From the IMG/VR virus record IMGVR_UViG_3300031787_000010, positions 9,429-73,428 of that record: a stretch of 64,000 nucleotides of DNA; one strand, given 5' to 3'. Within the stretch, counting starts at the first letter, position 1, and every line of letters begins with the position of its first letter. The notes under the pieces were generated by a model, which was not told where the DNA came from, ran no database searches, and worked only from the letters and a program-made list of their open reading frames with translations. Made by a program: the position numbers and the translations under genes. Shown piece by piece: positions 39,594 to 40,035 of this stretch. This stretch comes from a virus (lineage: Duplodnaviria > Heunggongvirae > Uroviricota > Caudoviricetes).

Positions 39594-40035
39594 TGTTGTT
39601 TGACAACAATCGGCGTGACGATGGTATCCATCCTAATTAATACCGTCACGCATCCGATTAGTAATCCCGCTGGGGTTACTGTAAACGGGGCACGGCGCCC
39701 GGGGTAAAAGTCCTCTATAAACCGCAGTGGTATCCATCGTGTCTTAACCTACGATGTAAAATACAAACCTTCGGGTAATACGTTAAGCGGTCGTATTGTC
39801 GAGACGAATACGCGGTACCCAATAGCCGATAAGTATTGGGAAGAGTGGTCCTCTTGTTGACGGCATAAGGCCGTTCATCTTAAATCAGCTGGTGTAGATG
39901 TGGCTACACCGTCCTGTCAGAATTCACAGGCGAATAGATGGCGTGATACACCATCTACCACAGTCTCCATATCCACGATGGATATTGGGACGGGCGCTCT
40001 AGTCCCGAAGCGCACAACAAGTCTCGGGATTTTTT
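39594..40035 (+). ncRNA. large multi-hairpin ncRNA candidate (about 440 nt)
   Basis: About 12 consecutive stems, own promoter, U-tract end, no plausible ORF. Confidence 0.6.

Follow-up and report, generated by a model that had tools for sequence, protein, structure and literature searches.

Few large RNAs with intricate folds and unknown function are known; those that are, GOLLD, ROOL, OLE and raiA, have turned out to be structurally unprecedented. GOLLD and ROOL often occur within the tRNA islands of phages, and the variable linker of some GOLLD members contains a tRNA (10.1101/2024.12.08.627333). In phage T4, two stable RNAs of unknown role, RNAC and RNAD, arise by transcription of the tRNA gene cluster (PMC3014915), and a catalogue of structured RNAs from IMG/VR lists 10,006 candidates predicted computationally in uncultivated phage contigs (PMC10690425). 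Here we follow up an original prediction, made from the sequence alone, that positions 39,594 to 40,035 of a 64,000-nt stretch of viral DNA (the window; positions 9,429 to 73,428 of IMG/VR record IMGVR_UViG_3300031787_000010) encode a large, ornate non-coding RNA (ncRNA).

The element occupies a 486-nt non-coding gap (39551–40036) between a tRNA-Leu(UAG) gene on the 5' side and a tRNA-Lys(UUU) gene on the 3' side. The source record is a 166.6-kb uncultured virus, a lake phage, whose DNA has ~37% G+C and carries structural genes, a tmRNA gene and an island of ~30 tRNA genes, all on the + strand. At 47% G+C the gap resembles the tRNAs and differs from coding DNA; no paralogue of the element was found elsewhere in the genome. 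We conclude that the element belongs to a genuine, expressed RNA family of narrow distribution, new as a family and of a known kind, that of large phage RNAs beside tRNA genes. The reading that we prefer, with a probability of about 0.6, is that a phage-encoded, highly structured ncRNA not described before has its gene at ~39595–40035 (+), and that it is a trans-acting stable RNA of the tRNA/translation island.

Results

A fold maintained by compensatory changes

Five sequence types of the element were assembled: the window copy (win), L113, L134, L141 and L152. All lie in the same tRNA-Leu(UAG)/tRNA-Lys(UUU) slot of a syntenic island, and the four non-window types come from other freshwater metagenomes. 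They represent three lineages (win; L113; L134/L141/L152), with 62–69% identity across lineages and 83–86% within the last; two of the five sequences are IMG/VR contigs. L113 was retrieved as DNA with a 21-mer from blocks identical between two types of RNA contig (see below), L134 through homologues of a small lipoprotein gene 600 nt upstream, L141 (an IMG/VR contig) by a gapped pattern, and L152 by using as bait a spurious minus-strand open reading frame (ORF) that lies over the RNA. L113 is the commonest homologue; at least nine further contigs (L114–L122) carry identical copies.

The five sequences were aligned block by block around the helices, each row being verified to match its source exactly. 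The resulting structural alignment contains 18 helices and 98 base pairs (Table 1), with standard pairs in 472 of 476 cells (99%). Thirty-six of the pairs have changed on both sides and are still paired; in six the change is confined to one side, and 55 do not vary. When the 3' partners were slid by 1–3 columns as controls, 35–43% of positions paired, with 0–2 compensatory pairs. Two checks independent of the structure-guided alignment, in which RNAalifold was run on unedited MAFFT alignments, found 18 of 94 pairs compensatory with two sequences and 29 of 86 with four. Furthermore, a covariance model built on 39680–39812 from three sequences (R1) recovered L141 (E 4e-28) and L152 (E 2e-32), both outside its seed, and the covariation score of its alignment was above that of 499 of 500 shuffles. 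Ranked by covarying pairs, the best-supported helices are H11, H10, H12, H7, H2 and H6. Among the aligned pairs, G.U occupies 20 cells and A.C two, which places the RNA on the + strand.

Table 1. Features of the element and its immediate surroundings, in window coordinates. Stems written in DNA letters were named in the original prediction.
Feature	Position	Strand	Sequence or pairing	Remarks
tRNA-Leu(UAG)	39469–39550	+		ARAGORN; 5' neighbour in five of five homologous loci
Promoter, sigma-70 type	39560–39588	+	TTGACA 39560–65, 17-nt spacer, TAAGTT 39583–88	Read from the sequence
H0, small 5' hairpin	39594–39608	+	UGUUGU/ACAACA	Present in win, L134, L152; absent from L113, L141
RNA contigs, exact, one per run	39604–39942 (combined)		39616–39940 (325 nt); 39642–39942 (301 nt); 39604–39927 (324 nt); 39619–39923 (305 of 308 nt)	Wholly inside the gap
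P1/H1 domain	39610–39657	+	P1 39610–13/39654–57; H1 39614–20/39644–50, CGTGACG/CGTCACG	Replaced by a tRNA-like element in the L113 type
H2 hairpin	39661–39679	+	39661–68/39672–79, GTAATCCC/GGGGTTAC	Covarying pairs 3/6
H3 hairpin	39686–39720	+	39686–89/39698–701; loop GCACGGCG	Has a compensatory pair
P4 junction	39721–39791	+	ACCGC/GCGGU	Encloses H5 (39735–41/39750–56, CATCGTG/TACGATG) and H5b
H5b	39767–76	+		UUCG-capped; inside the P4 junction
H6 hairpin	39792–39812	+	39792–97/39807–12, CGTATT/AATACG	3/6 pairs covary; CGUAUU/AAUACG becomes CACAUA/UAUGUG in L141
H7 and H8	39818–39855	+	H7 39818–24/39834–40, CCCAATA/TATTGGG	H7: 4/7 pairs covary; CCCAAUA/UAUUGGG becomes CUUAGC/GCUAAG. H8: loop UGGUY
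P9/H9 bulged hairpin	39858–39877	+		Covarying pairs 3/7
H10 and H11	39891–39931	+	H10 39891–97/39904–10, GGTGTAG/CTACACC; H11 39911–17/39926–31, (GT)CCTGT/ACAGG(C)	H10 5/6, H11 7/7 pairs covary
H12	39935–39960	+	39935–41/39951–57, TAGATGG/CCATCTA	5/7 pairs covary; loop UGAUAC conserved; CCA after it invariant in five of five
H13	39963–39991	+		Outer helix conserved with covariation; inner hairpin variable
H14, T and U6	39994–40035	+	H14 GCGCU/AGCGC; T UCCCGA 40003–08/UCGGGA 40024–29; U6 40030–35	H14 interlocked with T
tRNA-Lys(UUU)	40037–40111	+		First of five tRNAs immediately 3'; no space for an intervening promoter
Minus-strand ORF calls	39522–39896 (equivalent)	−	L141:3522–3896(−); L152:1501–1929; L118:2345–2629(−)	P0025, P0026

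All eight stems named in the original prediction are present where it had put them, and seven of them covary in the homologues, H5 being invariant. The two long-range pairings that it had suggested are not kept: for AATCCCG/CGGGATT the 5' partner is a strand of H2 that becomes GUAGGC or GCAACC against an unchanging 3' partner, and CGAGAC/GTCTCG, perfect in the window copy only, is interrupted by an internal mismatch in L113 and L134 and missing from L141. The closing helix of the minimum free energy fold (GGCGCCC/GGGCGCU) was also rejected; it competes with H3, which has a compensatory pair. RNAalifold proposed a further helix, AGUUGU/ACAACU, that is perfect in L113, L134 and L141, has the same bases in L152 and is broken at two positions of the window copy; it is a possible pseudoknot. 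The most conserved unpaired stretch, GGGUAAAAGUCC (39702–13), follows directly after H3. The loop of H11 is self-complementary (GAAUUC in four of five types, GAUC in L113) and has been retained though the stem beneath it is fully rewritten.

The 442-nt stretch folds to −151 kcal/mol, below all 100 dinucleotide shuffles (z −3.85). The opposite strand folds equally well (z −3.92), so that folding energy alone proves little, and the decisive support for the fold is comparative.

The substitutions also bear on whether the locus is a minus-strand protein gene, as the public gene calls have it; gene callers did place ORFs there, for hypothetical proteins of 94–142 amino acids. Every frame contains stops, and minus-strand frames shift between homologues with amino-acid identity of 42–78%, below nucleotide identity; the element is therefore non-coding. 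The window copy offers at most 66 open codons, its homologues align only with frame shifts, and the substitutions compensate one another within + strand helices that include G.U pairs. We regard the ORFs as spurious, and the probability that the locus encodes a protein as negligible.

The RNA is present as a discrete piece in metatranscriptomes

The stretch was found in many freshwater DNA runs and in six metatranscriptome runs, the latter containing 51–69% of its words. Eight runs from 2019 (X4–X11) labelled ‘fungus metagenome’, an unexpected label for a lake phage, contain 100% of the element's words and stand beside lake and freshwater runs. Contigs of four RNA runs, each from a different study, were compared with window positions 38000–41500. 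Each run yielded one exact contig lying wholly inside the gap (Table 1), and none of the four is joined to the flanking tRNAs; the element is thus found as RNA in four independent metatranscriptome studies. Three of the four runs also have a second, L113-type contig of 284–354 nt, which matches at 87% over 39677–39829 and is divergent thereafter.

The contig reaching furthest 5' begins at 39604, as compared with a predicted start at ~39595. At the other side, RNA contigs of both sequence types end at or just before H12, and H12 is followed by CCA in all types; we therefore suspect that the accumulating RNA ends near 39957–39960 and lacks H13, H14 and T, the last ~90 nt. The length of ~440 nt originally predicted holds for the whole unit (~39595–40035), whereas the accumulating RNA appears to be ~330–365 nt long (from 39596/39604 to ~39942–39960). 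Such a boundary, well before the conserved 3' module in both types, could also arise if the element were a ribozyme that cleaves itself between H12 and H13 and so gives the stable RNA its 3' end. However, no self-cleaving ribozyme model of Rfam 15 matched at E<=10, contig ends are not RNA ends, and host RNases explain the boundary equally well; we consider self-cleavage very improbable.

Three further observations were not counted as evidence: the missing RNA cover at 38000–38233, 40691–41275 and 39943–40035 of the 3.5-kb stretch; a contig depth of 24–164 for the RNA versus 3.6–13 for neighbouring phage contigs; and L141-type word shares of 0.24–0.35 in six riverine and aquatic RNA runs.

Other parts of the island were also seen in the RNA contigs. 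In two metatranscriptome runs the spacer between tRNA-Glu and tRNA-Gln (38372–38588) is covered by whole contigs that match exactly, of 217 and 185 nt; it is another expressed, possibly non-coding segment. Within 38711–39097, RNA contigs covering the small lipoprotein gene (38835–38999) stop at 39080, 39087 and 39097. Within 40441–40640, part (40514–40597) of a 196-nt structured segment after tRNA-Gly is likewise found; there, one RNA contig jumps from 40493 to 40568, omitting 74 nt, and two omit 16 nt, suggesting that forms of different length exist in related phages.

A conserved promoter and 3' module frame the element

The original prediction had credited the RNA with its own promoter. A conserved promoter exists, although it lies upstream of the start that had been proposed, right behind tRNA-Leu(UAG), with a predicted transcription start near 39595. 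At the same place L113, L134, L141 and L152 carry TTGACA-N17 followed by TATACT, TATACT, TATGTT and TATACT, respectively, so that hexamers and spacing are kept in five of five types. A promoter scan also listed a weaker overlapping candidate (TTGATA-18-TATGTT, ending at 39597). By its sequence the conserved promoter would be expected to drive transcription of the element.

At the 3' end, the hairpin/pseudoknot and the U6 tract are conserved in all five types, and the originally predicted U-tract end is indeed present. The T helix has one compensatory pair (U-A to C-G). Judged by its pairing, the H14/T module may be an H-type pseudoknot, a long-looped terminator-like hairpin, or both. Viewed as a terminator, T has a 6–8-bp stem with U6 and a loop of 15 nt; it was not listed by the terminator scan, which has a loop limit of 8.

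This arrangement raises the alternative that the element acts in cis, as a leader or attenuator for the tRNA-Lys-Ile-Met-Leu-Gly sub-operon that lies downstream, with a promoter that serves the tRNAs and an abundant RNA that is a by-product. Read-through would then be gated at the T hairpin and U6, perhaps by T-box-like sensing of tRNA-Lys, and the leader released by RNase P. In its favour, U6 ends at 40035 and tRNA-Lys starts at 40037, leaving no promoter space between them, and in win, L113, L141 and L152 the terminator-like hairpin abuts the tRNA, which starts at the next base but one after U6. Moreover, the most conserved unpaired stretch includes an invariant UAAAAG whose complement, CUUUUA, is the anticodon loop of tRNA-Lys(UUU), and the UGGU of the H8 loop is complementary to ACCA, which is the 3' end of a mature tRNA-Lys with discriminator A and also the sequence after H12 in the RNA itself; such matches would suit tRNA sensing. 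Nevertheless, complementarities of 4–6 nt easily arise by chance, and if UAAAAG and UGGU are taken as T-box specifier and UGGN, all five homologues precede the same tRNA-Lys(UUU) and hence offer no covariation with the sensed tRNA. The T-box model and all riboswitch models of Rfam were without a match at E<=10, and ~16 covarying helices far exceed what known attenuators need. A weaker point is that the RNA contigs stop short of the terminator region, where a terminated leader would end. On balance we find a leader unlikely, and prefer a stable RNA acting in trans.

The island is reshuffled around the RNA

The L113 type has no P1/H1 domain; in its place stands a 65-nt tRNA-like element (L113:2110–2174; 38.7 bits with the tRNA model of Rfam) whose anticodon arm is stunted, with a 4-nt ‘anticodon’ loop, and whose T-arm copies that of the neighbouring tRNA-Leu. 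The L113-type RNA contig begins 2 nt inside this element, as cutting by RNase P at the tRNA-like element would be expected to leave it. Beside the L134 copy, just upstream of the RNA promoter, is a truncated tRNA remnant (L134:1330–1391) that comprises a D-arm, a T-arm and a 3' acceptor strand, the last identical to that of tRNA-Leu, and a remnant of the 5' half of tRNA-Lys follows the U-tract. The tRNA island is undergoing reshuffling around an RNA that is itself kept.

Such exchanges, the narrow spread of the family and the presence in RNA contigs of another island spacer (38372–38588) would be compatible with a structured spacer that lacks a function of its own, either a pre-tRNA leader whose fold serves processing or stability or eroded former tRNA genes in a recombination-prone island. 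Against this, 36 compensatory pairs amount to selection on the fold itself; conservation extends to the promoter, the 3' module and the loops (UGAUAC, UGGUY, GAAUUC); the window copy contains nothing tRNA-like according to ARAGORN or the tRNA model of Rfam; and a discrete RNA piece of 300–325 nt persists in four studies. A functionless spacer therefore appears decidedly improbable.

Searches for more distant homologues were negative. Among 50,697 phage records, BLAST with the element gave no homologue, and in Microcystis phage Mel-JY01, Flavobacterium phage immuto, LR756508 and 40 IMG/VR relatives identified via the baseplate protein only promoter-like 15–24-mers matched. The GDSL-like neighbour protein and a 248-aa island protein, used as baits, brought no syntenic relatives, a 58-aa zinc-ribbon ORF retrieved only itself, and the first exact patterns had no match in IMG/VR. 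A pattern match in the contig L142 was attributed to chance, as were all eight pattern matches in genome_contigs (including a contig of a Fluviicola metagenome-assembled genome), in none of which R1 finds anything; pattern scans of 185,579 prokaryote species genomes gave chance matches only. Word shares of 0.6–0.9 in many further lake runs indicate that more variants exist than the five types.

By the baseplate protein, the nearest cultured relatives of the phage are Mel-JY01 (41% identity) and the Flavobacterium immuto phages (38%). Elsewhere in the window, G+C climbs from ~36–39% to 47–53% at ~52 kb and stays high until the window end (52000–64000), which may mark a block of the phage record that is hypervariable or of foreign composition.

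No match to described RNA families

Rfam 15 (4227 families) was scanned against the whole window at gathering thresholds, and permissive scans at E<=10 were added; neither kind of scan placed a family in the gap. At E<=10 no family matched the window copy, L113 or L141, if noise and the tRNA-like insert in L113 are set aside. In these three sequences the GOLLD and ROOL covariance models were without a match at either gathering score or E<=10; at E<=10 there was none for RNase P (including its conserved P4 pseudoknot regions) or for group I and group II introns, and Rfam 15 gave no match for tmRNA, 6S RNA or Y RNA. Neither ARAGORN nor the Rfam tRNA model found a tRNA within 39551–40036. The sequence GUAAAAGUCC faintly resembles the AAAGUCC motif of RNase P, whose models gave no match at E<=10.

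A diverged member of one of these described families would fit the position in a phage tRNA island, where GOLLD and ROOL often occur (10.1101/2024.12.08.627333). The lack of any match, however, is joined by a size smaller than that of GOLLD and ROOL, and the element interrupts no gene, the flanking tRNA-Leu and tRNA-Lys genes being intact and separate. Membership in a described family is largely refuted, and we hold it to be barely credible.

Discussion

Compensatory changes that keep the helices, together with transcription, identify the element as a structured ncRNA, and the originally predicted large, ornate RNA of no assignable class is borne out by strong covariation, presence in RNA libraries and zero matches in Rfam 15.

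We envisage that host RNA polymerase would start at the conserved sigma-70-type promoter behind tRNA-Leu(UAG) and that the transcript would fold into ~16–18 helices: a 5' domain (P1/H1); a core of H2, H3, the P4 three-way junction with H5/H5b, and H6; a string of hairpins, H7–H12; and a 3' module of H13 followed by the H14/T pseudoknot or terminator-like hairpin with U6, touching tRNA-Lys(UUU). Transcription would run on or partly terminate at the tRNA-Lys border. The 3' module may then be lost in one of two ways, through an endonuclease or through trimming after termination or an RNase P cut at the tRNA, and a stable species of ~330–365 nt, ending near the H12 hairpin and CCA, would accumulate in infected cells. 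Most likely it would act by self-association or through a bound partner related to tRNA or translation. More ambitious versions, in which it would found a new class of phage RNA, either as a multimer joined through the H11 loop (an RNA-only particle, as in ROOL and GOLLD) or as the first tRNA-Lys-sensing leader to gate a phage tRNA operon, strike us as rather doubtful.

Several points weigh against a trans-acting stable RNA, or reduce the force of the evidence for it. The layout of promoter, RNA and tRNAs without a second promoter fits a cis-acting leader equally well. The alignment comprises five sequences from three lineages, three of them 83–86% alike, too few for R-scape-type statistics, and, being built around the helices, it is biased towards them. 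H5 and H14 are invariant and P4 varies on one side only, so that these three rest on conservation (H5 and P4 also on energy) rather than covariation. For the stable part alone the thermodynamic signal is weak (z −1.7). Assembled contigs carry no strand, true ends or level, and the 3' boundary at ~39942 is a weak hint. Finally, in Mel-JY01, an immuto phage, LR756508 (484 kb), a complete IMG/VR relative of 197 kb and another 15 related contigs, R1 has no match; the family is therefore narrow, and looks confined to one freshwater phage lineage.

The element adds to the large folded RNAs an unrelated family in phage tRNA islands, for which there is evidence of production in nature. If big stable RNAs have come to lie among the tRNA genes of several unrelated phage lineages, a shared role in the takeover of tRNA or translation is probable, one that is experimentally approachable, and a length of ~350 nt suits probing and cryo-EM. 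At present, public annotations call spurious proteins of 94–142 amino acids across the RNA.

The element shares some features with each of several described systems. Like T-box leaders, it is long and structured and has a terminator-like hairpin and U-tract at its end, and its unpaired, Lys-codon-like AAA/AAG and UGGU loop could in principle meet tRNA-Lys(UUU). Unlike them, it precedes tRNA genes rather than genes of amino-acid metabolism or aminoacyl-tRNA synthetases, Stem I with its hallmark elements is not recognized, and the accumulating RNA seems to lack the terminator. T4 RNAC and RNAD, at ~120–140 nt, are far smaller, and a conserved promoter of its own is a feature of the present RNA. 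The IMG/VR catalogue, compared by its text only, describes no such element there (PMC10690425).

GOLLD and ROOL differ in that their Rfam models do not match, in that the present RNA was found in one narrow freshwater phage lineage only, and in size, GOLLD members often exceeding 800 nt and ROOL being likewise larger, as against ~350–440 nt here. In common with them, it is phage-encoded, stands beside a tRNA island as they often do, and has many helices and no known protein partner or function. The tRNA-carrying linker of some GOLLD members is paralleled by the tRNA-like element that takes the place of H1 in the L113 type, and a self-complementary hairpin loop would allow the self-association that GOLLD and ROOL show. 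We favour the view that this RNA is a functional analogue, and not a relative, of GOLLD, ROOL and T4 RNAC and RNAD.
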